Positions 1 to 64,000 of a stretch of 64,000 nt of DNA are shown here, one piece after another. The DNA lies in assembly GCF_013315695.1 (NCBI RefSeq), contig NZ_CP054353.1. One strand, 5' to 3'. Under the pieces are notes generated by a model that was not told the DNA's origin, searched no databases, and saw only the letters and a program-made list of their open reading frames with translations. The DNA is from Escherichia coli. GTDB taxonomy: Bacteria > Pseudomonadota > Gammaproteobacteria > Enterobacterales > Enterobacteriaceae. Position 1 is the first letter of the stretch. Every line of letters begins with the position of its first letter. Made by a program: the position numbers and the translations under genes.

Positions 1-79
1 CACCAGAAAGGCGCTTAAGAAACGGGTGATGCTGCCAACTTACTGATTTAGTGTATGATGGTGTTTTTGAGGTGCTCCA

Positions 80-777: not shown

Positions 778-846
778 GTTGGAGTCATTACCGGATTTTC
801 TTAACCCGTACTATACACATAGGGGCAATGATAAAAGGTGGCAAAA

Positions 847-8680: not shown

Positions 8681-10684
8681 TTACCCTTTTCGCTTCGGCA
8701 ATGTTTTCAGCAGATCATCCGGACTTACGGATGCCACTACGCTTCCCGGTAACGGCATTTTCAGTATGTGATTTTTGATTTTGCCAATGACGTGCATCTC
8801 GCATGGGCGGCAATCAAACTTTAGCGTTAATACTTCATCGCCGTTAACCAGTTGCATTGGCGTTGCCTTCCAGCTTTTGATATTGCCTTTCGCCTGTTTC
8901 GGGCACAGATTAAAGGCAAAGCGCAGACAATGCTTGGTGATCATCACCGGGACTTCGCCCTTCTCTTCATGTGCCTCATACGCCGCGTCAATCAGCTGCA
9001 CACCATAGCGATGATAAAATTCACGCGCTTTCTGGTTGTATACGTTCGCGAGGAAACTCAGATGCGTTTGCGGATAAACCGGCGCAGGATCAGCAACCGG
9101 TTTACGGCTGCCCCGCTGGTAACCGGCAAGACGTGCAGCATCCAGCATGTCGGCGGCTTCACGGCGGAACTGGTTTAACAGACTGTTTGGTACAAACAGC
9201 GCACCCGGCAAATTAATTTGCACATCGCGGGCGTAATAGATGGTTTGCCCCAGTTTTGCCAGACCATCCTTTAGATTGTTCATTGCTTTTTCGGCGTTAT
9301 TGGCTTCGTCGAACTGCCCGTCCAGCGTATGCGTGATGCTGACACCCTCTTCACTGGTGAGGGTCAGAATCAGTTGTTCCTGCCAGCCGCCCAGTTCAAT
9401 GTCTACCGCCACCCGACGTTCGCTGGAGGTTTTTGTCAGTGCCTGCTGCCAGTTATGATCAAGATTACGGTTTAGTGGGTGATGCGGGCGAATTTTGTGC
9501 AAATCTGCTGGCATTTCATTGGGCCAGACGCGGTACTGATTTTCTCCGGTTTTCTCGACCGTATTGGCACGAAAGCCGACGACTTCACGTTTAATCATCA
9601 CGTTCAGGCCATCGCCATTTGCCAGTGGTTCGGAAACGGCAACATCGAGATGATCTTTCGCCACTTTCAATACTTCACCCACCGGCAGGCCGATAAATTT
9701 CGGCGAATCGAACGCGCCAATATCGCCTTTACGGGCATTCACAAAATAATCTGTGCTACCACGGTGGAAAGTCTTTTCCGTCGATGGAACAAAGAAATGT
9801 TCAGTACGACCTGATGAAGCACGCGTCAGATCGCCACGTTCTTCAATAATGGCATCCAGCATCTGGCGATAATGGGCGGTGATATTCTTCACGTAGCTCA
9901 TATCTTTGTAACGCCCTTCAATCTTGAAGGAGCGTACGCCAGCATCAATCAGCGCGCCGAGGTTGGCAGTCTGATCGTTATCTTTCATCGACAGCAGATG
10001 TTTTTCATAGGAAACCACCCGCCCCTGATCGTCTTTCAATGTGTATGGCAAACGGCACGCCTGCGAGCAATCGCCACGGTTGGCGCTACGCCCTGTTTGC
10101 GCATGAGAAATGTAGCACTGACCCGAATAGGCCACGCACAGTGCGCCATGAATAAAGAATTCAATGGTCGCGTCCGTGGCCTGGTGAATCGCGCGGATCT
10201 GCTCAAGATTCAGCTCTCGCGCCAGCACAATCTGCGTAAAGCCAACATCAGAGAGGAACTTCGCTTTTTCTACTGTGCGAATATCGCACTGCGTACTGGC
10301 GTGCAGTTCAATCGGCGGAATATCAAGTTCCAGAATCCCCATATCCTGAACAATCAGCGCATCGACGCCGGTCTGGTAGAGGTCAGTAATCAGCCGTTGC
10401 GCGGGTTCCAGCTCATCATCATGCAAAATTGTGTTAAGCGTGACGAAAATTTTTGCACCATAACGATGGGCAAATGGCACCAGCTCGGCAATATCTTTCA
10501 GGCTATTACTGGCATTATGACGGGCACCAAAACCAGGGCCGCCGATATAAACAGCATCGGCACCGTGCAAAATAGCTTCGCGGGCAATGGCGGCATCGCG
10601 TGCCGGACTTAACAGTTCAAGACGATGAGAAGATACGGTCACTTTCTTATCCAGTAGCTGAAAAATGGCGGCTATTTTAGCCAC
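8681..10684 (-). CDS. ydcP: Peptidase U32-family protein YdcP/RlhA (ORF 667 aa; K-12-length start would be near 10642)
   Basis: Long ORF recognised as YdcP; start codon choice uncertain. Confidence 0.85.
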   Translation of the reverse strand: MAKIAAIFQLLDKKVTVSSHRLELLSPARDAAIAREAILHGADAVYIGGPGFGARHNASNSLKDIAELVPFAHRYGAKIFVTLNTILHDDELEPAQRLITDLYQTGVDALIVQDMGILELDIPPIELHASTQCDIRTVEKAKFLSDVGFTQIVLARELNLEQIRAIHQATDATIEFFIHGALCVAYSGQCYISHAQTGRSANRGDCSQACRLPYTLKDDQGRVVSYEKHLLSMKDNDQTANLGALIDAGVRSFKIEGRYKDMSYVKNITAHYRQMLDAIIEERGDLTRASSGRTEHFFVPSTEKTFHRGSTDYFVNARKGDIGAFDSPKFIGLPVGEVLKVAKDHLDVAVSEPLANGDGLNVMIKREVVGFRANTVEKTGENQYRVWPNEMPADLHKIRPHHPLNRNLDHNWQQALTKTSSERRVAVDIELGGWQEQLILTLTSEEGVSITHTLDGQFDEANNAEKAMNNLKDGLAKLGQTIYYARDVQINLPGALFVPNSLLNQFRREAADMLDAARLAGYQRGSRKPVADPAPVYPQTHLSFLANVYNQKAREFYHRYGVQLIDAAYEAHEEKGEVPVMITKHCLRFAFNLCPKQAKGNIKSWKATPMQLVNGDEVLTLKFDCRPCEMHVIGKIKNHILKMPLPGSVVASVSPDDLLKTLPKRKG

Positions 10685-17025: not shown

Positions 17026-17164
17026 ACGCACTCCCTGTTAGTGGCTGACAAGGTGTATCTGAAATACACACCATCAGATTACTCATTTAACTTAGGGAAA
17101 AATGCGAGCGGGATCGTGTTTAACCAGACGGCACCTCCCGAAGAAGGTGCCGAAGAAAAAACGA

Positions 17165-18820
17165 TTAACTCATCACGCGGTCGTCAACATACTGACGTTT
17201 ATCGGGCGCTGGCGGGAAATACTGATACAGCCATGTTTCACTGATAGCGTCGCCCTGACAACGCAGATACATCCGCATATCGACCGGATCAGTGGAGTCC
17301 GAAGTCGGATACCAGTCAAACTGAATACGATAACCATCAATGGGTTCAATATAGAGAATTTCGATTTGCTTCGCTTCCCCACTGGAAAGCGTAATCACCG
17401 GCTCAATGCCTTTTGGCGCGGCAGCTTTCAGATCACCACCAACGAAATCGACGGCAAAACGACGCGCCCATTTTTCGGGATAGTGTTCACCTGGAGCCCA
17501 ACCTTCCGGGAAACCACCCATGCCGGTACGCGTCGCCATAACGCGCGCTAATGGGCAATGAACAGGCGGTTGCGCACTCCAGTACAGACGATACTGGAAT
17601 GCAAACTCATCACCCGCTTTTACAGCTTTTTCTGGCTGCCAGAAGCAGACAATGTTATCCAGCGTTTCGCCCGTTGTTGGGATTTCCATCAGGCCGATGG
17701 TGCCCTTACCCCACTTGTTACGCGGTTCCACCCACAGACTTGGGCGTTTGTTATACCAGCCCATAATGTCCTGATAATGGGAGAAATCACGATCCAGTTG
17801 CAATAAACCAAACCCTTTCGGGTTGTTGTCGGTGTAAGCATTGAACTGCAATTTTTGCGGATTGTTCAGCGGACGACAAATCCACTCGCCGTTGCCCCGC
17901 CACATGGACAAACGATCAGAGTCATGGATTTGCGGATGAATGGTGTCGCACATCCGACGTTCATTAGTACCGCAGCTGAACATACTGGTCATCGGCGCAA
18001 TGCCCAGCTGTTTAATGTCTTTGCGCGCATACAGGTGATTTTCCACATCCATAATCACCTGACTTTTCTCGCAATGGATAGTGAACTTATAGGCACCAGT
18101 AATGCTGGCGCTATCGAGCAACGCATAAACGGTAAAGGTGGTTGCCCCCGGTTTTACCGTATCAAACCAGAAGGCGGTAAAGTCGGGGAACTCTTCTTTA
18201 CTGTCGGTGTAAGTGTCGATCGCCAGGCCGCGAGCCGATAGACCGTATTGATATGTGTCGTCAACGGCGCGGAAATAACTCGCACCGAGGAATGATACGA
18301 CATCACGGCGCGCCAGTTCGGGGGCTTTAAACACGCGAAAACCGGCAAAACCGAGATCGCTTTGCCCTTCTAATTGTTTGGTATCAACACCCGCATCGTT
18401 GTATTTGAACAACTCCGGGCGAAAGTGAATTTCACGCGCCAGATGTGTTGCGGGATCTACAGAAAACATACGAACGCGGCGACGGAATCCCATTCCCATA
18501 TGGAAGAACTGAGCGTCCAGTTGACGGTTCTCAACGTTATGCCAGAGCGATTTTTCGGCGTCGTATTGAATACTGTTATAAGCCTGCGGCGTCATTGTCG
18601 CCAGAGTGTCAGGTAACGGACGCGGCGCACCACGCCACGCTGTTTGCGCTAAGTCGTGCGCCATTGACTGTAGAATGGAGAAGTCAAAACGCTGGGTTTG
18701 CCCGTCGGCAATATCAGAATCTGCCGCGAATGCCGCCTGAGAAAAAAGAGAAGCAATGCCGCTGGTACCGCACACGGCGGCCATAGCCATTGAACCTTTA
18801 ATAAATCGTCTACGATCCAT
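17165..18820 (-). CDS. opgD: Glucans biosynthesis protein D (551 aa), Tat-exported
   Basis: Twin-arginine motif [10 protein letters not shown]; recognised OpgD/MdoD. Confidence 0.9.
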
Positions 18821-38597: not shown

Positions 38598-38652
38598 GGT
38601 GATGCTGCCAACTTACTGATTTAGTGTATGATGGTGTTTTTGAGGTGCTCCA

Positions 38653-38928
38653 GTGGCTTCTGTTTCTATCAGCTGTCCCTCCTGTTCAGCTACTGACGGG
38701 GTGGTGCGTAACGGCAAAAGCACCGCCGGACATCAGCGCTATCTCTGCTCTCACTGCCGTAAAACATGGCAACTGCAGTTCACTTACACCGCTTCTCAAC
38801 CCGGTACGCACCAGAAAATCATTGATATGGCCATGAATGGCGTTGGATGCCGGGCAACAGCCCGCATTATGGGCGTTGGCCTCAACACGATTTTACGTCA
38901 CTTAAAAAACTCAGGCCGCAGTCGGTAA
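38653..38928 (+). CDS. insA: IS1 InsA
   Basis: Translation identical to copy 1 InsA. Confidence 0.9.
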
Positions 38929-39350
38929 CCTCGCGCATACAGCCGGGCAGTGACGTCATCGTCTGCGCGGAAATGGACGAACAGTGGGGCTATGTCGGGG
39001 CTAAATCGCGCCAGCGCTGGCTGTTTTACGCGTATGACAGGCTCCGGAAGACGGTTGTTGCGCACGTATTCGGTGAACGCACTATGGCGACGCTGGGGCG
39101 TCTTATGAGCCTGCTGTCACCCTTTGACGTGGTGATATGGATGACGGATGGCTGGCCGCTGTATGAATCCCGCCTGAAGGGAAAGCTGCACGTAATCAGC
39201 AAGCGATATACGCAGCGAATTGAGCGGCATAACCTGAATCTGAGGCAGCACCTGGCACGGCTGGGACGGAAGTCGCTGTCGTTCTCAAAATCGGTGGAGC
39301 TGCATGACAAAGTCATCGGGCATTATCTGAACATAAAACACTATCAATAA
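38847..39350 (+). CDS. insB: IS1 InsB reading frame
   Basis: Translation identical to copy 1 InsB. Confidence 0.9.
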
Positions 39351-39505
39351 GTTGGAGTCATTACCACTTGAACCGATAATAAACGCAGAAATTCTATTTT
39401 GTAGCTCATTGTTGCCTCCTGTGTGAATTGTTCGAATCTACCAGGCTGCGATGAAAGAAGTCGTGTAGTAGAGAGCTATACCCGCAACAAGCGGGGCAGA
39501 CGTTC

Positions 39506-48571: not shown

Positions 48572-48838
48572 GGCATATAACCCGCGAAGAATAACGCATC
48601 ACTATTTAAATGTATAATTTTTATTTTGTATATGTCGCCAACAATATATTCACCAGACTTATTATCATTTCAGAAGAATTATTTGATTAAGGTTTTACTT
48701 AAGGCGTAACAAATAATATTTATCGTCTAACTGAACTTCTCCTTTAGGATGCTTTCACTCCCCGAAATGGGGATAAAAGGCAAGGTGATGCTGCCAACTT
48801 ACTGATTTAGTGTATGATGGTGTTTTTGAGGTGCTCCA

Positions 48839-49114
48839 GTGGCTTCTGTTTCTATCAGCTGTCCCTCCTGTTCAGCTACTGACGGGGTGGTGCGTAACGG
48901 CAAAAGCACCGCCGGACATCAGCGCTATCTCTGCTCTCACTGCCGTAAAACATGGCAACTGCAGTTCACTTACACCGCTTCTCAACCCGGTACGCACCAG
49001 AAAATCATTGATATGGCCATGAATGGCGTTGGATGCCGGGCAACAGCCCGCATTATGGGCGTTGGCCTCAACACGATTTTACGTCACTTAAAAAACTCAG
49101 GCCGCAGTCGGTAA
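48839..49114 (+). CDS. insA: IS1 InsA
   Basis: Translation identical to copy 1 InsA. Confidence 0.9.
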
Positions 49115-49536
49115 CCTCGCGCATACAGCCGGGCAGTGACGTCATCGTCTGCGCGGAAATGGACGAACAGTGGGGCTATGTCGGGGCTAAATCGCGCCAG
49201 CGCTGGCTGTTTTACGCGTATGACAGGCTCCGGAAGACGGTTGTTGCGCACGTATTCGGTGAACGCACTATGGCGACGCTGGGGCGTCTTATGAGCCTGC
49301 TGTCACCCTTTGACGTGGTGATATGGATGACGGATGGCTGGCCGCTGTATGAATCCCGCCTGAAGGGAAAGCTGCACGTAATCAGCAAGCGATATACGCA
49401 GCGAATTGAGCGGCATAACCTGAATCTGAGGCAGCACCTGGCACGGCTGGGACGGAAGTCGCTGTCGTTCTCAAAATCGGTGGAGCTGCATGACAAAGTC
49501 ATCGGGCATTATCTGAACATAAAACACTATCAATAA
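49033..49536 (+). CDS. insB: IS1 InsB reading frame
   Basis: Translation identical to copy 1 InsB. Confidence 0.9.
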
Positions 49537-49551
49537 GTTGGAGTCATTACC

Positions 49552-50357
49552 TCGATTACGGACGTAATTATGGCGTAATGTACGACATCGAAGGCTGGAC
49601 CGATATGCTGCCTGAATTTGGCGGTGACTCTTATACCAATGCAGACAACTTTATGACTGGTCGTGCCAACGGCGTCGCGACTTATCGTAATACTGATTTC
49701 TTCGGTCTGGTAAATGGTCTGAACTTCGCAGTGCAGTATCAAGGTAACAACGAAGGTGCCAGTAATGGTCAGGAAGGCACCAACAACGGACGTGATGTTC
49801 GCCATGAAAACGGTGACGGCTGGGGTCTTTCCACAACATATGATTTAGGCATGGGCTTTAGCGCTGGTGCGGCATACACCTCATCTGACCGCACCAATGA
49901 CCAGGTTAACCATACTGCGGCAGGTGGTGATAAAGCAGACGCGTGGACTGCTGGGCTAAAATACGATGCTAACAATATTTACCTGGCAACCATGTATTCA
50001 GAAACACGTAACATGACCCCGTTTGGCGACAGCGATTATGCAGTTGCGAACAAAACCCAGAACTTTGAAGTTACTGCACAGTACCAGTTTGATTTTGGTC
50101 TGCGTCCGGCAGTCTCTTTCCTGATGTCTAAAGGCCGTGACCTTCACGCTGCCGGTGGTGCAGACAACCCGGCAGGTGTTGATGATAAAGATCTGGTTAA
50201 ATACGCCGATGTTGGCGCGACTTACTATTTCAACAAAAATATGTCCACCTACGTTGACTATAAAATCAACCTGTTGGATGAAGATGACAGCTTCTACGCT
50301 GCCAACGGCATCTCTACCGATGATATTGTCGCTTTAGGTCTGGTTTATCAGTTCTAA
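49552..50357 (+). pseudogene. ompN: 3' portion of outer membrane porin gene truncated by IS1; ompN by synteny
   Basis: Frame open from the IS1 junction (..[15 protein letters not shown]..) to a porin-type C terminus LGLVYQF; N-terminal ~110 codons and promoter missing. Confidence 0.75.
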
Positions 50358-50964: not shown

Positions 50965-51421
50965 GATTCATTTCGCAAATGTGCTGACATTTTCCCCTCT
51001 AATCCGTACCATACACGCCACAGTTTTTATATCAGATTTCTTATGCTGGGCGTTCCGGCATGACGCATACTCTTCTGATGCCATATAACGAATTGAGTCG
51101 CTTTTAAATGTCGCAAAATCAAGAAATTAGTAAGAAAGAACAATACAACCTGAACAAGTAAGGGCAAAAATCACAACTCTCTGACTCATAAGTATTTTAC
51201 TTATTTTTCAATGTGTTAAATATCATCAGCGACAACAATAAGCTACGATAACCCACTCTTTTTTTGCCCCTTTTTTGCCCCTTTTGCAGCGCTTTGCCCC
51301 ATTTTTGCCATCAACAATTTTCCTCATCAAGTCATTTCAAAGCCTAATAGGTGCCCTACTTTTTTCCTCAGTACCACGTCGCCAGCAGGAAACAACCTAA
51401 TCCCGGTTCGGATCTAAAATT

Positions 51422-51440
51422 GCTAATGATAATCATTTTC
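51422..51440 (+). promoter_or_regulatory. Fur box upstream of sitA
   Basis: GCTAATGATAATCATTTTC versus consensus GATAATGATAATCATTATC. Confidence 0.75.
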
Positions 51441-51462
51441 ATTTTGTATTGCTTATGCTATA

Positions 51463-51484
51463 AAACATAGCCGTTGCTATGTTT
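51463..51484 (+). promoter_or_regulatory. MntR operator upstream of sitA
   Basis: Perfect palindrome AAACATAGC CGTT GCTATGTTT, matching the MntR box form. Confidence 0.7.
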
Positions 51485-51516
51485 GTTCTAATTTTGCTCA
51501 CTATAGGTACTAAATT

Positions 51517-52431
51517 ATGTACTCAATAAAAAAAGTAACCATGCTCTTGGGGTGCCTCGCCCTCACCTGCTCGATCGCATTTCAGGCGAGTGCAACTGAA
51601 AAATTCAAGGTCATTACAACATTTACCATCATCGCAGATATGGCCAAAAACGTGGCTGGAGATGCTGCAGAAGTCTCATCCATAACCAAGCCCGGTGCAG
51701 AAATTCATGAGTATCAGCCTACCCCTGGCGATATTAAACGTGCGCAGGAGGCACAACTGATTCTCGCCAATGGTATGAATCTGGAATTGTGGTTCCAACG
51801 CTTTTACCAGCATCTTAATGGGGTTCCAGAAGTAATTGTCTCTTCGGGTGTGACGCCAGTAGGGATCACTGAAGGCCCCTATGAGGGCAAACCTAACCCC
51901 CATGCCTGGATGTCGCCAGATAATGCTCTGATTTACGTCGATAATATTCGTGATGCGTTGATAAAATACGATCCGGCAAATGCACAAACCTACCAACGTA
52001 ATGCCGATACTTATAAAGCCAAGATTACCCAAACCCTTGCCCCCCTGCGTAAGCAGATTGCTGAACTCCCTGAGAATCAGCGATGGATGGTCACCAGTGA
52101 AGGGGCTTTTTCTTATCTCGCACGCGATTTGGGGCTAAAAGAGCTTTATCTGTGGCCGATTAATGCCGATCAACAAGGCACGCCGCAGCAGGTACGTAAG
52201 GTTGTTGATATGGTGAAGAAAAATCATATCCCGGCAGTCTTTAGCGAGAGTACGATTTCCGATAAACCAGCGCGTCAGGTTGCGCGTGAAACCGGCGCGC
52301 ACTACGGCGGTGTACTCTATGTCGATTCCCTGAGCACAGAAAACGGCCCGGTACCTACGTATATCGACCTTCTGAAGGTTACTACCAGTACGCTGGTACA
52401 GGGAATTAAAGCCGGGAAAAGGGAGAAATAA
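51517..52431 (+). CDS. sitA: Periplasmic Mn/Fe-binding protein of Sit ABC transporter (304 aa)
   Basis: Signal peptide plus metal-binding lipoprotein-9-like sequence; first gene of a four-gene transporter operon. Confidence 0.85.
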
Positions 52432-53258
52432 TGATGCAATCTGCGGGCATTGTCGTTAATGATGTTACTGTCACCTGGCGTAACGGGCACACAGCACTGC
52501 GCGATGCATCCTTCACAGTACCAAGTGGATCTATTGCCGCTCTGGTTGGGGTAAACGGTTCCGGAAAATCGACGTTGTTTAAAGCGATTATGGGATTTGT
52601 GCGTCTGACCAGCGGAAAGATATCTGTTCTGGGTATTCCCACGCGACAGGCGCTACAGAAAAACCTGGTTGCCTACGTCCCTCAGTCAGAAGAGGTTGAC
52701 TGGTCATTTCCTGTACTAGTGGAAGATGTGGTGATGATGGGCCGCTATGGGCACATGGGTATGTTGCGTATAGCCAAAAAGAGGGATCGTCAGATTGTCA
52801 CCGATGCGCTGGAACGTGTCGATATGGTGGATTTTCGCCATCGACAAATCGGCGAGCTTTCCGGTGGACAAAAGAAACGCGTCTTTCTGGCGAGAGCGAT
52901 TGCACAGCAGGGTGATGTGATCCTGCTGGATGAACCTTTTACCGGCGTTGATGTGAAAACCGAAGCGAAAATCATCAGCCTGTTGAGGGAGTTACGCGCG
53001 GAAGGCAAGACGATGCTTGTCTCAACGCACAATCTCGGCTCAGTCACGACATTTTGCGATTATACGGTCATGGTCAAAGGCACCGTCCTGGCAAGCGGGC
53101 CGACAGACACCACTTTTACAGCCGAGAACCTGGAGCTGGCTTTTAGCGGCGTACTGCGCCATGTCACACTTAACGCCTCGGAAGAAAGCATTATTACTGA
53201 CGATGAACACCCTTTTGTGGCACATCGACCGTCAGCGGTGCAGAGGGAAGCAAGATGA
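52431..53258 (+). CDS. sitB: Sit transporter ATP-binding protein (275 aa)
   Basis: Walker [10 protein letters not shown], signature LSGGQKKR, Walker B ILLDEP. Confidence 0.85.
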
Positions 53259-54112
53259 ACGTGCTACTGGAACCCTTCAGCTATGAATATATGCTCAATG
53301 CGATGTGGGTCTCGGCGATGGTCGGCGGTCTCTGCGCTTTCCTGTCATGCTATCTGATGCTAAAAGGCTGGTCGCTGATTGGCGATGCGCTGTCGCACTC
53401 TATTGTCCCGGGTGTTGCGGGGGCATATATGCTGGGGCTTCCGTTTTCTCTGGGAGCCTTCTTTTCCGGCGGACTGGCAGCGGGCAGCATGCTGTTTCTT
53501 AACCAACGCACTCGCTTAAAAGAAGATGCCATCATCGGCCTGATCTTCTCCTCCTTTTTTGGCCTGGGGCTGTTTATGGTGTCATTGAACCCGACATCCG
53601 TGAACATTCAGACCATCGTCCTAGGCAATATTCTGGCAATCGATCCGGCGGATATCCTGCAACTCACTATCATTGGCATTCTCTCGATCATCGTGCTTTT
53701 TTTCAAATGGAAAGATCTTATGGTGACCTTTTTCGACGAGAATCACGCCCGTGCTATTGGATTGCATCCGGGCAGATTAAAAATCCTCTTCTTCACCCTG
53801 CTGTCGGTTTCGACCGTTGCGGCGCTGCAAACGGTTGGTGCCTTTCTGGTGATCTGTCTGGTGGTGACTCCCGGTGCAACAGCATGGTTGTTAACCGATC
53901 GTTTTCCCCGCCTGCTCATAATTGCTGTAACTATTGGCAGTGTAACCAGTTTCCTCGGCGCGTGGGTCAGTTACTTTCTGGACGGCGCGACAGGTGGAAT
54001 CATCGTGGTGGCGCAGACACTGCTGTTTCTTTTAGCATTTGTATTTGCGCCCACCCATGGGCTTTTGGCAAATCGTCGGCGTGCGCATAAAGCGCTGGAG
54101 GATCGCTCATGA
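53255..54112 (+). CDS. sitC: Sit transporter permease (285 aa)
   Basis: Multi-pass membrane ORF overlapping sitB end. Confidence 0.85.
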
Positions 54113-54966
54113 TGGCATTATTACTGGAGCCACTGCAGTTCACCTTTATGAGTCACGCACTGCTGATTTCACTGGTAGTTTCCATACCCTGTGCGCTGCT
54201 GTCGGTCTTTCTGGTCCTGAAAGGTTGGGCACTGATGGGTGACGCGATGAGTCATGCGGTTTTTCCTGGCATCGTGCTTGCCTGGATTCTGGGGTTACCT
54301 CTGGCTACAGGGGCATTTATCGCCGGAGTATTCTGCGCGGTGGCGACGGGATACCTGAAAGACAACAGCCGAATCAAGCAAGATACAGTGATGGGGATTG
54401 TTTTTTCTGGCATGTTTGCCGCAGGTCTGATCTTGTATATTGCAGTCAAACCAGACATACATCTTGACCATATTCTTTTCGGCGACATGCTCGGGGTAAC
54501 CATCGGCGATATAATCCAGACGATGATTATTGCCGGGCTGGTTACACTTGTTATTAGCGTAAAATGGCGGGATTTTTTGCTGTTCAGCTTTGATTATCAA
54601 CAGGCGCAGGTAAGCGGTTTGCATACGCGATGGCTGCATTATGGGCTGCTGTGCATGGTTTCCCTGACCATTGTGGCGACGCTGAAAGCAGTAGGTATCA
54701 TTCTCTCCATTTCTCTGCTCATTGCGCCTGGCGCCATTGCGGTACTCCTGACACAACGCTTTCATATTGCACTCCTACTGGCGACTGGCATATCGGTAAT
54801 AGTCTCAATGACTGGTGTTTGGCTGTCCTTTTTTATCGACAGCGCACCCGCTCCGACGATTGTCGTCTTATTCGCGGTTGTGTTCATCATGACGTTTACC
54901 GTTATCAGTTTCAACGCACGCACAAAGGGAAACGCTCATAGACAGGATCTGTTATCCCCCAATTAG
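54109..54966 (+). CDS. sitD: Sit transporter permease (285 aa)
   Basis: Multi-pass membrane ORF overlapping sitC end. Confidence 0.85.
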   Translation: MMALLLEPLQFTFMSHALLISLVVSIPCALLSVFLVLKGWALMGDAMSHAVFPGIVLAWILGLPLATGAFIAGVFCAVATGYLKDNSRIKQDTVMGIVFSGMFAAGLILYIAVKPDIHLDHILFGDMLGVTIGDIIQTMIIAGLVTLVISVKWRDFLLFSFDYQQAQVSGLHTRWLHYGLLCMVSLTIVATLKAVGIILSISLLIAPGAIAVLLTQRFHIALLLATGISVIVSMTGVWLSFFIDSAPAPTIVVLFAVVFIMTFTVISFNARTKGNAHRQDLLSPN

Positions 54967-55417
54967 CACAACATCCGAGGGCAGCATTGTCCGCTAGTAC
55001 ACTGCAGTCCAGAAAGTCATGGGCGGACGTTGGGAGGAGGCGCTAATCCTTTCATACAAAAAATATGTAAAATCAATAACGGCTGTAAATCATTCAATAC
55101 TCGCACTATCGGAAGTTCACCAGCCAGCCGCAGCACGTTCTTGCATACGACGTGTCTGCGGTTTCAACTTCACCAGTCCACCAATCACGATGGACAGTGC
55201 CAAGACAGCACTAGCAAAAACAGGAAATTAGCAGTCTCAGCAGAACACCGACCAGACGGTGAAGAAACAAAAAAGGATACGCAAAGGGGCCGCAGTTCCC
55301 GATTGATAAAAAAGCCAGCTTATGCGCTTTTTTTTCATGTATTATTAAGTATTGGTTAGCGTCTTTTTAATCAGAACTTTAAAGACAAGCCATTTGTAAG
55401 AAAACCGACAGATTCGG

Positions 55418-56233
55418 TTGACAAGCAGGAGTAATACTTTGGACATAAGAAAAGATTTGGAATCAGTAGCCCAATATATAAGTAGACTGTTATCGATAGG
55501 GTACGAATTTAGCCGTTTTGATAAAGACTGGGTCCATTTAAAAAATGAAGAGGATTTTCGTTTTATTTCAAGAATACCATTTGCAACACGGAATAAAGTG
55601 GAAGCAGTATATGCGGAAGGCAGAGATATGGCACTTTATATGTCTGATGAGTTACTATCCATTAATAGTGATTTCAGTAAATTTCCAACGTTGACAGCTA
55701 TTATCGAAAGATTCAAGGACACTTGGGTTTATGGTAATTATGATTCGGAAGTGCCAAATATAGCTAAAAAAACATGCGAAGAAAATGCAGTTCAGCTTTG
55801 GTCTGTAGAACAGATGTGTTCCTTATTCAAAAAGCAAGAACAACTATTAGCAGCAGTACGTATCACATTGCAGATGCTACAAGATAGTGACCTATACAAG
55901 ATGGAGAATGGTTTACCTCTTATGAAACAAGAAGCTAATATTCATGTCAGTGGAATTTCCGGTTCTAGTATCAATATACATTCTTCAGGTGCTACGGCAA
56001 CTACTACGACAAATTATAATGAGCCCACAATATTTAATGAAATGATTGAGGCAATAAAATCGAAAAACTTTGATGGCGCGACAGAATCACACCTTATAGA
56101 TAATGTACAGGCACTGGCAGCCAGTCACCAAAGCGGCTGTTTTAAAGAAGCATATAAGGACTTTATTAATAATGTATCTGCACACATTACAGTATTTACT
56201 CCATTTCTTGCTGGCATATCATCTTTACTATAA
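55418..56233 (+). CDS. Hypothetical protein, AT-rich orphan ORF (271 codons from TTG; a TTG at 55439 has better Shine-Dalgarno spacing)
   Basis: Long open frame in a visibly low-GC segment; AGGAG at 55427..55431; no family recognised; Ser/Thr-rich linker SGISGSSINIHSSGATATTTTN. Confidence 0.55.
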   Translation: MTSRSNTLDIRKDLESVAQYISRLLSIGYEFSRFDKDWVHLKNEEDFRFISRIPFATRNKVEAVYAEGRDMALYMSDELLSINSDFSKFPTLTAIIERFKDTWVYGNYDSEVPNIAKKTCEENAVQLWSVEQMCSLFKKQEQLLAAVRITLQMLQDSDLYKMENGLPLMKQEANIHVSGISGSSINIHSSGATATTTTNYNEPTIFNEMIEAIKSKNFDGATESHLIDNVQALAASHQSGCFKEAYKDFINNVSAHITVFTPFLAGISSLL

Positions 56234-56778
56234 AATAAGTGACAGATACATTAATACATAACGAAAAATCTTTTTAGCTACTCATTCATATCAATAGTGC
56301 CCTACCATAGGGCACATTATTCGTGGAACTCGTTTATGACAAAAGAATTTTGATGGTCTGCCTGATGCAACAGATATAATTCTGGGAGTGTTGAGTAAGA
56401 GTATTCACCGGCGCTCAACACAAATGCCAGCAAGCACGAGAAAGAGCAGGTAAGCCTGAGTGTTCAGGAAATGTTTGAAAAGGCTAATATGTGGCTGGTT
56501 TCAGATTAAACGCCTTGAACCGTCATATTACTTAAGTACAATCCGCCTAGACTAGCAATCATTCAATAGTAGCACTATCGAGCGCTCGCCAGTCGAGCGC
56601 AATCATGCTCCTTGCATACGGCGTGCAGCATATCACAAAACGATTACGCCATGACGGACTGCAGGCTACTCAATATCTGGCTCGATTAGCGTATTGGCAT
56701 GATTTAACAGACCCCGGCGCTTATTCCCAGCAACCTGAAGCGGCACCTCTTCCTGTGTTGCGTTTACAACTCCCTTTT

Positions 56779-57087
56779 TCACCCACGATTAACCAACAGC
56801 CAGACCAGCAGACAAGCCACCACCGGCACAGAAAAATCCATCAGGCTTGCCACATCCCACACGCGCGGATCAAAACCACCCCACCACGGCATATTCATAC
56901 GCTTGCCATGCCCGAACATTTCAATCCAGCGATATTCTGCCTGGGTATGTTCACGAGCAATGAAGAACGTACAACCGGCTATCGCCCCGTAAGCCCAGTT
57001 TCCGGTAAAAAGACCAACCAGTACCTGCGCAGCCACAGCACAAAGTGCATGAAGGAAAGGTGTTATATCCATTTTCATCCTACCCAA
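56779..57087 (-). CDS. Hypothetical small membrane protein (102 aa; may start at MKMDITPF, 57075)
   Basis: Two hydrophobic segments (AVAAQVLVGLF..., VPVVACLLVWLLV); overlapping plus-strand 161-aa ORF is low-complexity. Confidence 0.5.
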   Translation of the reverse strand: MGRMKMDITPFLHALCAVAAQVLVGLFTGNWAYGAIAGCTFFIAREHTQAEYRWIEMFGHGKRMNMPWWGGFDPRVWDVASLMDFSVPVVACLLVWLLVNRG

Positions 57088-57148
57088 TAAAACGAGGCGC
57101 TCGGCCCCTTAATATTATTTAGACGCAAGCGTCGGTAATGACTCCAAC

Positions 57149-57652
57149 TTATTGATAGTGTTTTATGTTCAGATAATGCCCGATGACTTTGTCATGCAGC
57201 TCCACCGATTTTGAGAACGACAGCGACTTCCGTCCCAGCCGTGCCAGGTGCTGCCTCAGATTCAGGTTATGCCGCTCAATTCGCTGCGTATATCGCTTGC
57301 TGATTACGTGCAGCTTTCCCTTCAGGCGGGATTCATACAGCGGCCAGCCATCCGTCATCCATATCACCACGTCAAAGGGTGACAGCAGGCTCATAAGACG
57401 CCCCAGCGTCGCCATAGTGCGTTCACCGAATACGTGCGCAACAACCGTCTTCCGGAGCCTGTCATACGCGTAAAACAGCCAGCGCTGGCGCGATTTAGCC
57501 CCGACATAGCCCCACTGTTCGTCCATTTCCGCGCAGACGATGACGTCACTGCCCGGCTGTATGCGCGAGGTTACCGACTGCGGCCTGAGTTTTTTAAGTG
57601 ACGTAAAATCGTGTTGAGGCCAACGCCCATAATGCGGGCTGTTGCCCGGCAT
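57149..57652 (-). CDS. insB: IS1 InsB reading frame
   Basis: Translation identical to copy 1 InsB. Confidence 0.9.
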
Positions 57653-57846
57653 CCAACGCCATTCATGGCCATATCAATGATTTTCTGGTGCGTACCGGGT
57701 TGAGAAGCGGTGTAAGTGAACTGCAGTTGCCATGTTTTACGGCAGTGAGAGCAGAGATAGCGCTGATGTCCGGCGGTGCTTTTGCCGTTACGCACCACCC
57801 CGTCAGTAGCTGAACAGGAGGGACAGCTGATAGAAACAGAAGCCAC
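57571..57846 (-). CDS. insA: IS1 InsA
   Basis: Translation identical to copy 1 InsA. Confidence 0.9.
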
Positions 57847-57925
57847 TGGAGCACCTCAAAAACACCATCATACACTAAATCAGTAAGTTGGCAGCATCAC
57901 CCCCGGCGTTAAGGGGAGAGATAAG

Positions 57926-58060
57926 ATGGTGCATTACGAAGTAGTTCAGTATTTGATGGATTGTTGCGGTATCACTTACAACCAGGCTGTGCAGGCTTTA
58001 CGCAGCAACGCCTGGGATCTCTGGCAGGCAGAAGTCGCTATACGTAGCAACAAGATGTGA
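57926..58060 (+). CDS. ydaG: Rac prophage small protein, YdaG-like (44 aa)
   Basis: Hand-translated MVHYEVVQYLMDCCGITYNQAVQALRSNAWDLWQAEVAIRSNKM; name assigned from length and position. Confidence 0.5.
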   Translation: MVHYEVVQYLMDCCGITYNQAVQALRSNAWDLWQAEVAIRSNKM

Positions 58061-58070
58061 GATTCGCAAA

Positions 58071-58226
58071 ATGCAAAAAATCGACCTCGGCAACAACGAA
58101 TCCCTGGTGTGCGGCGTGTTCCCCAACCAGGATGGAACGTTCACTGCCATGACGTATACCAAAAGCAAAACATTTAAAACCGAAACTGGTGCGCGCCGAT
58201 GGTTGGAGAAGCACACAGTAAGCTAA
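58071..58226 (+). CDS. ydaF: Rac prophage small protein, YdaF-like (51 aa)
   Basis: Hand-translated MQKIDLGNNESLVCGVFPNQDGTFTAMTYTKSKTFKTETGARRWLEKHTVS. Confidence 0.5.
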   Translation: MQKIDLGNNESLVCGVFPNQDGTFTAMTYTKSKTFKTETGARRWLEKHTVS

Positions 58227-58711
58227 CGATTAAAACGTCTACTCCTGCTGTTCCAGAATAACTTCATAAAATGGGAGTATTTTTCGGTGACGAGATAATA
58301 AGAACAGTTTGCGCTATCACTCTGATGTTGAATGATGCCCTTCCGTTCTAATTTTTTCATAACCGGGTTACGGCAAGGAGAAGTGATAATAAGATTTCCT
58401 GTTTTAAGGAAATCTTTAAATACAGCGATTTCTTTCTCAGATAAACGAAGCAATACTCGTTGCTCTGGTAGTAATGAATAATGCTTTTGAATATGTGCTC
58501 GCAATCTTGAGAAGGAAATGGCGACCACGAAAGAAAAGGCAAAAACGATAATCTGAAAGAGCCAAGGTATTTCAGTATAAGCATTGAATGCGACAGTAAA
58601 CTCTTTCGGTATCAGCCAGAGAGTGAGACCAAAAATGATAATCGTATACATAAGTCTTTCGAGTGGCTCGTTAGCAAAAAGTTTCAATAATGGAGTAGAT
58701 ACATCCAACAT
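58223..58711 (-). CDS. sieB: Superinfection exclusion protein B, Rac prophage (162 aa)
   Basis: Start set at MLDVSTPLLKLFANEPLERLMYTIIIFGL within longer track ORF. Confidence 0.8.
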   Translation of the reverse strand: MLDVSTPLLKLFANEPLERLMYTIIIFGLTLWLIPKEFTVAFNAYTEIPWLFQIIVFAFSFVVAISFSRLRAHIQKHYSLLPEQRVLLRLSEKEIAVFKDFLKTGNLIITSPCRNPVMKKLERKGIIQHQSDSANCSYYLVTEKYSHFMKLFWNSRSRRFNR

Positions 58712-59151
58712 ATCAATAACTCTCAACTGTAAGGGTATTGAAATGTTAACACAAGCTCTCGCTGTAGGGGTATAGCCGAGACCACCGAAGCCCGGAGGTG
58801 GTGAAATAAAACCGGGCACAACACGAAGGCGCATTTCCGATATCCATAAAGAGTCGGTCTTGTCTGTTAAATTTAAATGGTGGGAGTGCGCCTCCGGTTG
58901 TAAATAACGACATTGCTGTGTGTAGTCCTGGCGGCATCAGTTTTTTCTTGAAGTTCGGCTGATGTCCGCCCTTTTTTAAGTGAATTTTGTGATGCGGTGA
59001 ATGCGGCTAAGCGCACGTGGCACAGTTAAAAGTCATGTTAGTCCTTATTGGTTTGGGTGGGAAAGCCGACTGTAATTGTTAACTGGTTGCAGTCACCTGG
59101 AGGCACCAGGCACCGCATCAACAAAGTTCATTTGTAAAAATGGAGATAATT

Positions 59152-59373
59152 ATGATTGCACATCACTTCGGAACTGATGAAATACCACGTCAGTGTGTGA
59201 CTCCTGGCGATTATGTTCTTCATGAAGGCCGGACATATATTGCCTCGGCAAACAATATTAAAAAGCGAAAACTATATATTCGTAACCTGACCACAAAAAC
59301 ATGCATTACTGACCGCATGATTAAAGTCTTCCTCGGTCGTGATGGTTTACCTGTAAAGGCGGAGTCATGGTGA
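59152..59373 (+). CDS. kilR: Cell-division inhibitor KilR, Rac prophage (73 aa)
   Basis: [38 protein letters not shown]... Confidence 0.8.
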
Positions 59374-59543
59374 TGACTAAGAAAATAAAATGTGCTTACC
59401 ACCTTTGCAAAAAAGACGTTGAAGAAAGCAAAGCTATTGAAAGAATGCTTCACTTCATGCACGGGATTTTATCAAAAGACGAACCGAGAAAATATTGCAG
59501 TGAATCTTGTGCCGAAAAAGACCAGATGGCACATGAACTTTAA
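59373..59543 (+). CDS. ydaE: Rac prophage small zinc-finger-like protein YdaE (56 aa)
   Basis: Hand-translated [56 protein letters not shown]; start overlaps kilR stop. Confidence 0.6.
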   Translation: MTKKIKCAYHLCKKDVEESKAIERMLHFMHGILSKDEPRKYCSESCAEKDQMAHEL

Positions 59544-59617
59544 TTAATTGACTATTCGAAACTGAATTTATGCCAGAAATGGCAGGTATTCGCTCAACCT
59601 TAATTAAGGAGAAAAAC

Positions 59618-59893
59618 ATGATTACCAATTATGAAGCCACTGTTGTAACTACCGATGACATTGTTCACGAGGTGAATCTGGAAGGAAAGCGCATTGGCTA
59701 CGTAATTAAAACAGAAAATAAAGAAACCCCATTCACTGTGGTTGATATCGATGGTCCATCAGGCAACGTAAAAACACTTGATGAAGGTGTCAAAAAAATG
59801 TGCCTGGTGCATATCGGAAAGAATCTGCCCGCAGAAAAAAAAGCCGAATTTCTGGCAACTCTAATTGCAATGAAATTAAAAGGTGAAATCTGA
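59618..59893 (+). CDS. racC: Rac prophage protein RacC (91 aa)
   Basis: Start set at MITNYEATVVTTDDIVHEVNLEGKRIGYVIK. Confidence 0.75.
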   Translation: MITNYEATVVTTDDIVHEVNLEGKRIGYVIKTENKETPFTVVDIDGPSGNVKTLDEGVKKMCLVHIGKNLPAEKKAEFLATLIAMKLKGEI

Positions 59894-59994
59894 AAGAAAT
59901 AGCCTGCGTATGGCGCAGGCTATGAACAGTGTGTATCCGGCAAGATCATTCACTGAACAAAACGAATTTTAATCTGAGTTGAGGTTAAAAAACA

Positions 59995-62595
59995 ATGAGC
60001 ACAAAACCACTCTTCCTGTTACGGAAAGCGAAAAAATCATCCGGTGAACCTGACGTCGTCCTGTGGGCAAGCAACGATTTTGAATCGACCTGTGCCACTC
60101 TGGACTACCTGATCGTTAAGTCAGGTAAAAAACTGAGCAGCTATTTTAAAGCTGTTGCCACGAATTTTCCTGTCGTTAATGACCTGCCCGCTGAAGGTGA
60201 GATCGATTTTACCTGGAGTGAACGCTATCAACTCAGCAAAGACTCCATGACATGGGAACTAAAACCGGGAGCAGCACCAGACAACGCTCACTATCAAGGC
60301 AATACCAACGTCAACGGCGAAGACATGACTGAGATTGAGGAGAATATGCTACTCCCAATTTCTGGCCAGGAACTGCCCATTCGTTGGCTTGCTCAACACG
60401 GCAGCGAAAAACCGGTAACGCACGTTTCACGCGACGGACTCCAGGCATTACACATTGCTCGGGCTGAAGAACTACCGGCTGTTACTGCCCTGGCTGTTTC
60501 CCACAAAACCAGCCTGCTCGACCCGCTGGAAATTCGCGAACTCCACAAACTGGTTCGTGACACTGACAAAGTTTTCCCTAATCCTGGTAATTCAAACCTG
60601 GGACTGATAACTGCTTTTTTCGAAGCATACCTGAACGCTGACTACACCGATCGAGGACTGCTGACAAAAGAGTGGATGAAGGGTAATCGTGTTTCACACA
60701 TCACTCGCACGGCTTCCGGTGCTAATGCTGGCGGCGGAAACCTCACCGATCGCGGCGAAGGTTTCGTACACGATCTGACGTCACTGGCGCGCGACGTAGC
60801 CACTGGCGTACTGGCCCGTTCAATGGATCTGGACATCTATAACCTTCATCCGGCACACGCTAAACGCATTGAGGAAATTATCGCTGAAAATAAACCGCCC
60901 TTTTCTGTTTTCCGCGACAAATTCATCACCATGCCTGGCGGGCTGGATTATTCCCGCGCCATCGTGGTTGCGTCCGTAAAAGAAGCACCAATTGGGATCG
61001 AGGTCATCCCCGCGCACGTCACTGAATATCTGAACAAAGTACTGACTGAAACCGATCATGCCAACCCTGATCCGGAAATCGTGGATATTGCCTGCGGTCG
61101 CTCCTCTGCCCCGATGCCGCAGCGAGTAACAGAAGAAGGAAAACAGGATGATGAAGAAAAACCGCAACCATCTGGAACAACGGCAGTTGAACAGGGAGAG
61201 GCTGAAACAATGGAACCGGACGCAACTGAACATCATCAGGACACGCAGCCGCTGGATGCTCAGTCACAGGTAAATTCTATTGATGCGAAATATCAGGAAC
61301 TGCGGGCAGAACTCCATGAAGCCCGGAAAAACATTCCATCAAAAGATCCTGTCGATGCCGATAAATTGCTTGCTGCATCACGTGGTGAATTTGTTGACGG
61401 AATTAGCGACCCGAACGATCCGAAATGGGTAAAGGGGATCCAGACTCGCGATTGTGTGTACCAGAACCAGCCAGAAACGGAAAAAACCAGCCCGGATATG
61501 AATCAACCTGAGCCAGTAGTGCAACAGGAACCGGAAATAGCCTGCAATGCCTGCGGCCAGACTGGCGGGGATAACTGCCCTGACTGTGGTGCGGTGATGG
61601 GCGACGCAACATACCAGGAAACATTCGATGAAGAGAGTCAGGTTGAAGCTAAGGAAAATGATCCGGAGGAAATGGAAGGCGCTGAACATCCGCACAATGA
61701 GAATGCTGGCAGCGATCCGCATCGCGATTGCAGTGATGAAACTGGCGAAGTCGCAGATCCCGTAATCGTAGAAGACATAGAGCCAGGTATTTATTACGGA
61801 ATTTCGAATGAGAATTACCACGCGGGTCCCGGTGTCAGTAAGTCTCAGCTCGATGACATTGCTGATACTCCGGCACTATATTTGTGGCGTAAAAATGCCC
61901 CCGTTGACACCACAAAGACAAAAACGCTCGATTTAGGAACCGCTTTCCACTGCCGGGTACTTGAACCGGAAGAATTCAGTAACCGCTTTATCGTAGCACC
62001 TGAATTTAACCGCCGTACAAACGCCGGAAAAGAAGAAGAGAAAGCGTTTCTGATGGAATGCGCAAGCACAGGAAAAACAGTTATCACTGCGGAAGAAGGC
62101 CGGAAAATTGAACTCATGTATCAAAGCGTTATGGCTTTGCCGCTGGGGCAATGGCTTGTTGAAAGCGCCGGACACGCTGAATCATCAATTTACTGGGAAG
62201 ATCCTGAAACAGGAATTTTGTGTCGGTGCCGTCCGGACAAAATTATCCCTGAATTTCACTGGATCATGGACGTGAAAACTACGGCGGATATTCAACGATT
62301 CAAAACCGCTTATTACGACTACCGCTATCACGTTCAGGATGCATTCTACAGTGACGGTTATGAAGCACAGTTTGGAGTGCAGCCAACTTTCGTTTTTCTG
62401 GTTGCCAGCACAACTATTGAATGCGGACGTTATCCGGTTGAAATTTTCATGATGGGCGAAGAAGCAAAACTGGCAGGTCAACAGGAATATCACCGCAATC
62501 TGCGAACCCTGTCTGACTGCCTGAATACCGATGAATGGCCAGCTATTAAGACATTATCACTGCCCCGCTGGGCTAAGGAATATGCAAATGACTAA
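59995..62595 (+). CDS. recE: Exodeoxyribonuclease VIII (RecE), full-length 866 aa
   Basis: 866-aa ORF with acidic central region and C-terminal nuclease domain; directly followed by overlapping recT. Confidence 0.9.
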
Positions 62596-63397
62596 GCAAC
62601 CACCAATCGCAAAAGCCGATCTGCAAAAAACTCAGGGAAACCGTGCACCAGCAGCAGTTAAAAATAGCGACGTGATTAGTTTTATTAACCAGCCATCAAT
62701 GAAAGAGCAACTGGCAGCAGCTCTTCCACGCCATATGACGGCTGAACGTATGATCCGTATCGCCACCACAGAAATTCGTAAAGTTCCGGCGTTAGGAAAC
62801 TGTGACACTATGAGTTTTGTCAGTGCGATCGTACAGTGTTCACAGCTCGGACTTGAGCCAGGTAGCGCCCTCGGTCATGCATATTTACTGCCTTTTGGTA
62901 ATAAAAACGAAAAGAGCGGTAAAAAGAACGTTCAGCTAATCATTGGCTATCGCGGCATGATTGATCTGGCTCGCCGTTCTGGTCAAATCGCCAGCCTGTC
63001 AGCCCGTGTTGTCCGTGAAGGTGACGAGTTTAGCTTCGAATTTGGCCTTGATGAAAAGTTAATACACCGCCCGGGAGAAAACGAAGATGCCCCGGTTACC
63101 CACGTCTATGCTGTCGCAAGACTGAAAGACGGAGGTACTCAGTTTGAAGTTATGACGCGCAAACAGATTGAGCTGGTGCGCAGCCTGAGTAAAGCTGGTA
63201 ATAACGGGCCGTGGGTAACTCACTGGGAAGAAATGGCAAAGAAAACGGCTATTCGTCGCCTGTTCAAATATCTGCCCGTATCAATTGAGATCCAGCGTGC
63301 AGTATCAATGGATGAAAAGGAACCACTGACAATCGATCCTGCAGATTCCTCTGTATTAACCGGGGAATACAGTGTAATCGATAATTCAGAGGAATAA
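62588..63397 (+). CDS. recT: Single-strand annealing protein RecT (269 aa)
   Basis: Start set at [28 protein letters not shown]; overlaps recE stop (ATGACTAA). Confidence 0.9.
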
Positions 63398-63453
63398 TTC
63401 AGCCTGGCGGTGTAATGCACCGCCAACTTGAAATATTTTTTATGAGAAAAATT

Positions 63454-63648
63454 ATGAGATATGACAATGTTAAACCATGTCCATTTTGTGGTTGTCCATC
63501 AGTAACGGTGAAAGTCATTTCAGGATATTACCGAGCGAAGTGTAACGGATGCGAATCCCGAACCGGTTATGGTGGAAGTGAAAAAGAAGCACTCGAAAGA
63601 TGGAATAAACGAACCACTGGAAATAATAACGGAGGTGTTCATGTATAA
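63454..63648 (+). CDS. ralR: Restriction alleviation protein RalR/Lar (64 aa)
   Basis: Start set at MRYDNVKPCPFCGCPSVTVKV; Cys-rich motif. Confidence 0.7.
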   Translation: MRYDNVKPCPFCGCPSVTVKVISGYYRAKCNGCESRTGYGGSEKEALERWNKRTTGNNNGGVHV

Positions 63649-63829
63649 AATTACCGCCACTATTGAAAAGGAAGGTGGCACTCCTACTAACTGGACAAGA
63701 TATTCAAAATCTAAACTAACGAAATCAGAATGCGAAAAAATGCTCTCAGGTAAAAAAGAAGCAGGCGTTTCCAGAGAGCAGAAAGTAAAACTGATAAATT
63801 TTAATTGCGAGAAACTTCAGTCCTCGTGA
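63641..63829 (+). CDS. ydaC: Rac prophage protein YdaC (62 aa)
   Basis: Start set at MYKITATIEKEGGTPTNW, overlapping ralR stop. Confidence 0.6.
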   Translation: MYKITATIEKEGGTPTNWTRYSKSKLTKSECEKMLSGKKEAGVSREQKVKLINFNCEKLQSS

Positions 63830-63928
63830 ATTGCATTGTATTCAAATTAAAACTTCATAGCTGATTATTAATAATCAACATCGGGCGTCAATTTCAGTCT
63901 AACATTGGCGCCTGCCAGAGGTGATGCG

Positions 63929-64000
63929 ATGGCACAAGTAATCTTTAATGAAGAGTGGATGGTTGAATACGGCCTGATGCTTCGCACTGGTCTGGGGGCC
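63929..64000 (+). CDS. xisR: Rac prophage excisionase-like protein, 5' partial (runs off window end)
   Basis: ATG at 63929: MAQVIFNEEWMVEYGLMLRTGLGA... Confidence 0.5.
   Translation, partial: MAQVIFNEEWMVEYGLMLRTGLGA

Follow-up and report, generated by a model that had tools for sequence, protein, structure and literature searches.

Joint loss of racR and of the promoter region upstream of the Rac left arm at an IS1 junction in Escherichia coli, with probable silencing of kilR and recET

A decayed Rac prophage that lacks the repressor gene racR and still carries the toxic gene kilR raises the question of how kilR is controlled. Such a remnant was found in a stretch of 64,000 nucleotides of Escherichia coli (contig NZ_CP054353.1), the whole of which is called the window here. 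As the first-pass annotation of this DNA had recognised, Rac is cut by IS1 in its immunity region: an IS1 copy at 57134..57901 abuts the left arm, and racR, ydaS and ydaT are absent. The closest relatives were E. coli MSB1_4I (NZ_LR898874.1), recovered from a human rectal swab and matching the window with 100% identity, and the blood-culture isolate AF3 (NZ_OZ547117.1), which was nearly identical.

Beyond the IS1 copy, positions 57902..64000 were colinear with K-12 (NC_000913) from 1,419,480 down to 1,413,381, with 99.7% identity over 6,099 bp, the differences amounting to 19 substitutions and one 1-bp indel. The gene order, established from our own translations and from the RefSeq annotation of MSB1_4I, was ydaG, ydaF, sieB (minus strand), kilR, ydaE, racC, recE, recT, ralR, ydaC/rcbA and xisR, the last being cut by the window end. 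The earlier description of a retained sieB and kilR-recET arm, with its genes in this order, was thus borne out by both the colinearity and the translations. The left arm comprised the following features:

57926..58060, plus strand: ydaG, 44 aa, D29A relative to K-12
58071..58226, plus strand: ydaF, 51 aa, identical to K-12
58223..58711, minus strand: sieB, 162 aa, F5S relative to K-12, antisense to early-left transcription
59152..59373, plus strand: kilR, 73 aa, intact, F51C relative to K-12, C-terminal tail unchanged
59373..59543, plus strand: ydaE, 56 aa, A45S
59618..59893, plus strand: racC, 91 aa, identical to K-12
59995..62595, plus strand: recE, 866 aa, intact, four substitutions
62588..63397, plus strand: recT, 269 aa, identical to K-12
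63454..63648, plus strand: ralR toxin gene, 64 aa, A21V
63647..63825, minus strand: ralA antitoxin sRNA (Rfam RF02694, 225 bits against a gathering score of 170)
63641..63829, plus strand: ydaC/rcbA, shortened by the premature stop R63*

With the exception of ydaC/rcbA, all left-arm coding sequences were full length, and this integrity could reflect either a recent deletion or ongoing use. MSB1_4I, whose sequence is the same as the window's here, has a frameshifted intR adjoining ttcA just outside the window.

The junction at which this arm begins is composed of two elements:

57134..57901, minus strand (insA/insB): IS1 copy 4, 768 bp, with its IRL end at 57901 facing ydaG and the Rac left arm
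57902..57925, plus strand: residue of the racR–ydaG spacer, 24 bp kept of the 308 bp found in K-12, containing the ydaG ribosome-binding site and no promoter

IS1 copy 4 is a complete element of 768 bp, with terminal inverted repeats and with insA and insB joined via a programmed frameshift, and it carries the RefSeq label of an IS1A-family transposase with programmed frameshift. It was 100% identical to the copies at 25..792, 38598..39365 and 48784..49551, so that the window harbours four identical copies. The 9-bp flanks of copy 4 were unlike each other (GCAAGCGTC versus CCCGGCGTT), and their comparison revealed no target-site duplication, which is expected to span 8–9 bp after a simple insertion. 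Since these flanks differ, copy 4 is not a simple insertion, and its state is compatible with the product of a deletion or of inter-IS1 recombination.

The breakpoint lies at K-12 1,419,480/1,419,481, which is 24 bp ahead of the start codon of ydaG. Both copy-4 junctions, left and right, were found in 2 of 5,426 complete genomes, namely MSB1_4I and AF3, and this confinement indicates a deletion that is recent and private to the lineage. A wider distribution of the IS1/ydaG junction among further strains was considered and rejected, as dedicated junction queries returned the two genomes and the earlier matches proved to be joined pieces of nearby IS1 copies. The progenitor state of the junction was not found among the 5,426 genomes; consequently, adjacent deletion and recombination between two IS1 copies, either of which is compatible with copy 4, are indistinguishable here.

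A second IS1-associated loss was observed 8 kb from copy 4. In MSB1_4I, IS1 copy 3 lies 25 bp upstream of ompN, and its 9-bp target duplication, AAAAGGCAA, is perfectly preserved. Relative to MSB1_4I, the window lacks 362 bp beside copy 3, a loss that takes in this duplication and 328 bp from the start of ompN and that indicates that IS1-adjacent deletion is active in the lineage. This lineage carries at least 40 IS1 copies.

The material missing at the copy-4 junction was delimited by comparison with K-12 and with related strains. By blastn, K-12 positions 1,419,481..1,434,805 had no match in the window, and by tblastn the best window match to RacR, YdaS or YdaT had E = 0.4, the genes being absent at both the DNA and the protein level. 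The far side of IS1 copy 4 presented the following features:

51108..57133, plus strand: surviving right end of the prophage, from ttcC'/attR through the last 19 bp of the tail-fibre gene
51108..51158: ttcC'/attR, right end of the prophage
51159..51310: K-12 Rac right-end sequence, 152 bp
51517..54966: sitABCD, in the right end of the prophage
after sitABCD, up to 57133: one hypothetical ORF, a DinI-like gene with a frameshift, an ORF of 97 aa and the final 19 bp of the tail-fibre gene

The earlier statement that everything beyond racR is absent holds for the middle of the K-12 prophage, which is gone, but not for the right end, which survives past IS1 at 51108..57133. In strain 7/2 the equivalent left flank runs straight into the tail-fibre gene of a complete-looking lambdoid prophage. 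Because relatives such as 7/2 continue into this gene, all the DNA from the tail fibre to racR was lost in the window. Strain 7/2 itself was rejected as a progenitor, since the left arm to which its sit-bearing right arm is joined is of Qin type and terminates at rspB.

What this deletion removed can be read from the 308-bp racR–ydaG spacer of K-12. On the ydaG strand, a promoter scan reported TTGACA-17-TATAGT, which preserves 11 of the 12 consensus positions (9655->9627 of the K-12 locus sequence). The RacR operator consensus derived from footprints is (T/A)TAGGC-n3-GCCTA(T/A) (PMC9638921), and it was present in K-12 Rac at six sites, located around racR only: four in the racR–ydaS region and two in the racR–ydaG spacer. 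One spacer operator, TAGGCATAGCCTA, is a perfect consensus match that abuts the –35 hexamer, and the other, TAGGCATTACCTA, has one mismatch and is placed between the –35 and –10 hexamers, overlapping the latter. In the Rac-type locus of O157:H7, with an overall identity of about 86%, neither the hexamers nor any operator half-site differed, and the operator spacers varied. We infer that this promoter and its two palindromes form the Rac counterpart of lambda pL/OL, as the arrangement of the sequence suggests.

The RacR regulon has not been characterised in detail (PMC11014345). The pL/OL assignment agrees with the published transcriptome. Upon RacR depletion in K-12, ydaG and ydaF rose about 40-fold, and kilR, ydaC and ralA rose more than 70-fold (PMC6765115); the de-repressed promoter must accordingly be upstream of ydaG. 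Independently, Shashni et al. reported that the lethal kil expression observed on Rho failure originates at PRM-racR, from which transcription is normally halted at trac, a NusG-dependent Rho terminator within racR (PMC4150792). PRM, trac and the putative pL and OL all lie past the breakpoint and are absent from the window together with racR.

The sieB–kilR intergenic region, 58712..59151, had been taken by the first-pass annotation as a RacR-controlled kilR promoter. This was not supported: no RacR operator with two or fewer mismatches was present in 57902..64000, and hence none in 58712..59151, and the promoter scan reported no plus-strand promoter-like site in 57902..59400. Instead, the region holds KilS with its own candidate promoter and terminator. 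In K-12, KilS is an sRNA generated from the kilR 5′ UTR with its own transcription start (PMC8175672), and it is annotated as b4833. The features of this region, all on the plus strand, were:

58865..58873, plus strand: candidate extended –10 promoter TGtTAAATT, read from the sequence, 7 nt upstream of the KilS 5′ end
58880..58976, plus strand: kilS sRNA, homologue of K-12 b4833, with the 5′ end at K-12 1,418,502 (window 58880)
58930..58971, plus strand: KilS terminator hairpin, which with the U-tract at 58972..58977 makes up an intrinsic terminator; the start codon of kilR lies 175 nt downstream
58960..59159, plus strand: conserved kilR leader, STnc100-like, 37.7 bits against a gathering score of 47 and thus below the Rfam threshold

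The TGtTAAATT element may represent the KilS promoter, judging by its motif and position. Relative to K-12, kilS has lost one U; its loop U-run is 1 nt shorter and its U-tract contains six residues instead of five. The predicted fold had an energy of –34.4 kcal/mol (z = –2.5), compared with –34.9 kcal/mol in K-12. A match to DicF (Rfam RF00039) at 58917..58971 reached 37.6 bits, below the gathering score of 48 and therefore short of the family threshold (E = 8.5e-7 in a 401-bp search), and the DicF likeness of KilS resides mostly in the terminator stem. Leader segments of about 80% identity were found upstream of dicB/kil genes in many genomes.

Taken together, the anatomy of the locus makes it likely that the left arm has been cut off from its upstream promoters, not de-repressed, and that kilR and recET stay silent without RacR. 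A single IS1-associated deletion would have taken the whole centre of a Rac-type prophage, from the 3′ end of the tail-fibre gene to 24 bp upstream of ydaG. This one step would have removed racR, the RacR-operated early-left promoter of the pL/OL type, PRM and trac, which would be all the known or inferred feeders of ydaG–ydaF–kilR–ydaE–racC–recE–recT transcription. What would be left upstream of kilR is a weak KilS promoter, whose transcripts mostly end at the KilS terminator, together with the conserved leader, which is also the situation of a K-12 lysogen under repression. The silence of kilR and recET in the strain would thus follow from the persistence of only this weak promoter and the terminator. 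Counted against this explanation, IS1 or the left flank could be a source of transcription into the arm, and read-through from the KilS promoter may exceed what is assumed here.

The kilR gene itself is intact. The C-terminal unstructured tail of KilR is needed for toxicity (PMC12482147), and the window protein, with its full length of 73 aa, differs from K-12 by F51C only and leaves the critical C-terminal 12 residues unchanged. Inactivating changes, which the first-pass annotation had also named as evidence against its view, were sought by comparison with K-12 and detected neither in kilR nor in its leader. An identical KilR protein (WP_000560223.1) is encoded by PSS-07, a racR+ strain, in which the ydaG–recE segment is 99.92% identical to the window, including the leader alleles. 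Compensatory mutations in kilR or its leader were accordingly rejected: F51C and the leader changes also occur where racR is retained. Furthermore, Krishnamurthi et al. (2017) reported that a K-12 deletion of sieB–ydaU, in which racR was lost and kilR kept, was viable, and that racR is essential solely owing to ydaS/ydaT (PMC5700373).

These data bear on the possibility that a local promoter in 58712..59151, normally repressed by RacR, is now de-repressed and that the cells survive by virtue of an attenuated KilR F51C or of the leader. The F51C allele, the altered loop U-run and U-tract of the leader and the local KilS transcription start reported in K-12 (PMC8175672) would fit such a situation, but it is very unlikely in view of the lack of a RacR operator in this region even at two mismatches, the sharing of the protein and the nearly identical segment with racR+ PSS-07, the unchanged C-terminus of KilR and the tolerance of racR loss by K-12 with wild-type kilR (PMC5700373). 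The absence of RacR could also be compensated in trans by a prophage repressor, of the RacR type or another, whose gene lies elsewhere in the genome. Other lambdoid prophage sequences do occur in the genome, and an anchor of about 2.2 kb, the prophage-derived left flank, matched 10 places in MSB1_4I. In this closest genome the occurrence of racR was assessed indirectly, by place counts of chimeric queries built on that anchor: the anchor alone gave 10 places, its combination with the racR coding sequence and the right operators 9, and its combination with the entire 908-bp block 11. Inclusion of the racR coding sequence and the right operators thus contributed no place (9 versus 10), and the difference between 11 and 10 fits a pL-leader segment of about 155 bp that is common to lambdoid prophages (thousands of genomes; a class of about 17% coverage). 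A further racR copy, which the first-pass annotation had named as the finding that would overturn its view, is therefore probably absent from the MSB1_4I chromosome. In addition, racR-like DNA occurred in just 1,096 of the 5,426 genomes and the remnant has no RacR operators to bind, so that a repressor acting in trans is an extremely improbable solution.

Alternatively, the IS1 copy itself could drive the arm, either from a hybrid promoter formed at the IRL end or by read-through, producing low constitutive expression of ydaG–kilR–recET as a natural activation of the sbcA-like kind. IS1 insertions are reported to create hybrid promoters, and a –35-like TTGGCA is present at 57888..57893, pointing outward at a distance of 8 bp from the end of the element; both recE and recT are undamaged. 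Against this, the hexamers placed 16–18 bp downstream of TTGGCA (TAAGGG, AAGGGG, AGGGGA) lack essential –10 features and no plus-strand promoter was reported by the scan, for which reason a hybrid promoter at the IS1 end was rejected as having no acceptable –10. Transcription of insA/insB runs away from ydaG, and any transcript derived from IS1 must cross the antisense, untranslated sieB sequence, 490 nt long, and after it the intrinsic terminator of KilS before reaching kilR. Expression driven by IS1 is thus unlikely. Its specific form, in which the junction would act as a natural sbcA-like mutation giving low constitutive recE/recT (and ydaG/ydaF) expression with the KilS terminator holding kilR at a sub-toxic level, is highly improbable; if true, it would raise RecET-type recombination and feed IS1-mediated rearrangements in a lineage rich in IS1.

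The carriage of kilR without racR is not unusual. At a coverage of at least 80%, the kilS–kilR–ydaE block was counted in 1,742 of the 5,426 complete genomes, and any racR-like DNA in 1,096, of which 1,086 had the full racR and operator block. From these two counts, at least 646 genomes that carry kilR have no racR DNA. The puzzle of a toxic kilR left without its repressor, as it was initially framed, largely dissolves: the putative RacR-gated promoter upstream of ydaG was deleted as well, and the K-12 deletion of sieB–ydaU is viable (PMC5700373). More generally, a decayed prophage may keep a toxin gene and lack the repressor without posing a regulatory puzzle, as the deletion endpoint decides whether the promoter leaves too.

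In K-12, kilR is induced by a route gated by OxyS, NusG and Rho (PMC5793797, PMC12482147). As a corollary of silent kilR and recET, this route would have been lost in the lineage, with the kilR gene intact. Overall, the locus represents ordinary prophage decay of a well-known kind, and its IS1 junction is one particular allele, which two public genomes already contain in annotated form. Existing K-12 genetics, combined with the position of the breakpoint, answer the biological question, and the significance beyond annotation is slight. As a by-product, the Rac early-left promoter and two candidate RacR operators were tentatively placed at the sequence level in K-12, which was not described in the literature examined.

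The closest known system is the cryptic Rac prophage of K-12 (b1345–b1375). Both occupy the same integration side, with the ttcA/intR end visible in the matching genome, and the ydaG–xisR arm, with kilS, kilR, recET and ralR/ralA, agrees between them in gene order and is 99.7% identical. Unlike K-12, the window is missing 1,419,481..1,434,805, that is, pL/OL, racR, ydaS–ydaW, trkG, the tail genes and pinR, and its right end bears sitABCD and other cargo foreign to K-12, with IS1 at the junction. K-12 Rac follows the logic of the lambda immunity region (cI, OL/pL, OR/pR/pRM), with three operators between racR and ydaS (PMC9638921) and, as candidates, two further operators over a consensus promoter aimed into the early-left arm; it differs in that the left operators of Rac are sequence-predicted, and the window in that the whole module is missing. 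As regards IS1-mediated adjacent deletion, a complete IS1 without target duplication stands at the deletion junction, as that process would leave it, whereas none of the 5,426 genomes supplied a progenitor for copy 4.

The dicF–dicB pair of prophage Qin offers a further parallel, in which an sRNA ending in a hairpin and U-tract likewise directly precedes a gene for an inhibitor of cell division, within the early-left arm of a lambdoid prophage, and the 3′ half of KilS aligns across the full DicF model. In contrast, the KilS score is sub-threshold, its 5′ targeting region is different, and KilR and DicB are unrelated proteins. Finally, the sieB–ydaU deletion of K-12 (PMC5700373) resembles the window in having lost racR, ydaS/ydaT and the spacer upstream of ydaG while keeping kilR. 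That deletion is a laboratory construct also devoid of sieB, ydaF and ydaG, whereas the one in the window is natural, IS1-associated and much larger, and it has kept these three genes.

The window carries four IS1 copies, the last of which lies at the deletion junction of the Rac remnant.

25..792: IS1 copy 1
38598..39365: IS1 copy 2
48784..49551: IS1 copy 3
57134..57901: IS1 copy 4

These four elements are mutually 100% identical within 64 kb, and a target-site duplication was found around none of them (0 of 4). Their identity and lack of duplications, together with the presence of at least 40 IS1 pieces in the genomes matching the window, point to a recent expansion of IS1 accompanied by repeated rearrangement. 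The comparison with MSB1_4I (NZ_LR898874.1), one of the two closest genomes, revealed a fresh IS1-adjacent deletion in the 48784..49578 region, where 362 bp adjoining copy 3 were absent from the window and the sequences were otherwise identical. Of the 9-bp target duplication AAAAGGCAA, the right-hand repeat lay in the lost segment, as did the first 328 bp of ompN, which is therefore 5′-truncated in the window; ompN is intact in both MSB1_4I and AF3 (NZ_OZ547117.1).

The right end of the prophage also bears an additional operon.

within 51108..54966: sitABCD, iron/manganese transporter operon, inside the prophage right end

This operon is flanked on one side by attR (ttcC′) with a 152-bp stretch of the Rac right end, and on the other by a tail-fibre remnant; its placement inside the prophage right end therefore identifies it as prophage cargo that outlasted the deletion. 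The rcbA/ydaC gene has a premature stop (R63*) at 63827, and intR, placed just beyond the window, is frameshifted in the matching genome (L001 19747..20980); the Rac remnant is probably unable to excise. Related prophages in other strains presented different structures. The Rac-type prophage of PSS-07 (L003 2965..3453 and 17094..17779) kept racR and carries a deletion fusing sitB to trkG, plus an internal recE–recT deletion, being another decay route of the same prophage. In strain 7/2 (L005/L006, NZ_CP023820.1 1,795,586..1,850,000), the sit-bearing right arm at the Rac site runs on into a Qin-type early region that carries dicB, relBE and cspB/F/I and ends at rspB, which suggests a large rearrangement between the prophages at the Rac and Qin sites.

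The racR–ydaG spacer of K-12, deleted from the window up to 24 bp before ydaG, presents a potential regulatory region.

L002 (K-12 Rac locus) 9627..9668 = K-12 1,419,626..1,419,667: TTGACA-17-TATAGT, a promoter close to consensus, and two palindromes of the RacR operator type

The promoter and both palindromes are conserved in an O157 Rac-type prophage and, judging from their sequence, likely correspond to the Rac early-left promoter and operators (pL/OL), which are not described in the cited Rac and RacR papers. Between this putative pL and ydaG, a segment of ~155 bp (L002 ~9466..9621, K-12) has matches in 3,713 genomes; it is found in most E. coli genomes with 80–90% identity, is seldom annotated, and possibly represents a conserved leader of the early-left arm, for instance a nut-like site.

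Regarding known systems, the 3′ half of KilS (58917..58971), the sRNA in the kilR 5′ UTR, aligned with the full-length Rfam DicF model at 37.6 bits, where the gathering score is 48, and the kilR leader (58960..59159) matched STnc100 at 37.7 bits, where it is 47, both under threshold and with the likeness mostly in the terminator stem. Based on these alignments, the Rac kilS–kilR pair resembles the Qin dicF–dicB module in position and looks like its positional counterpart.
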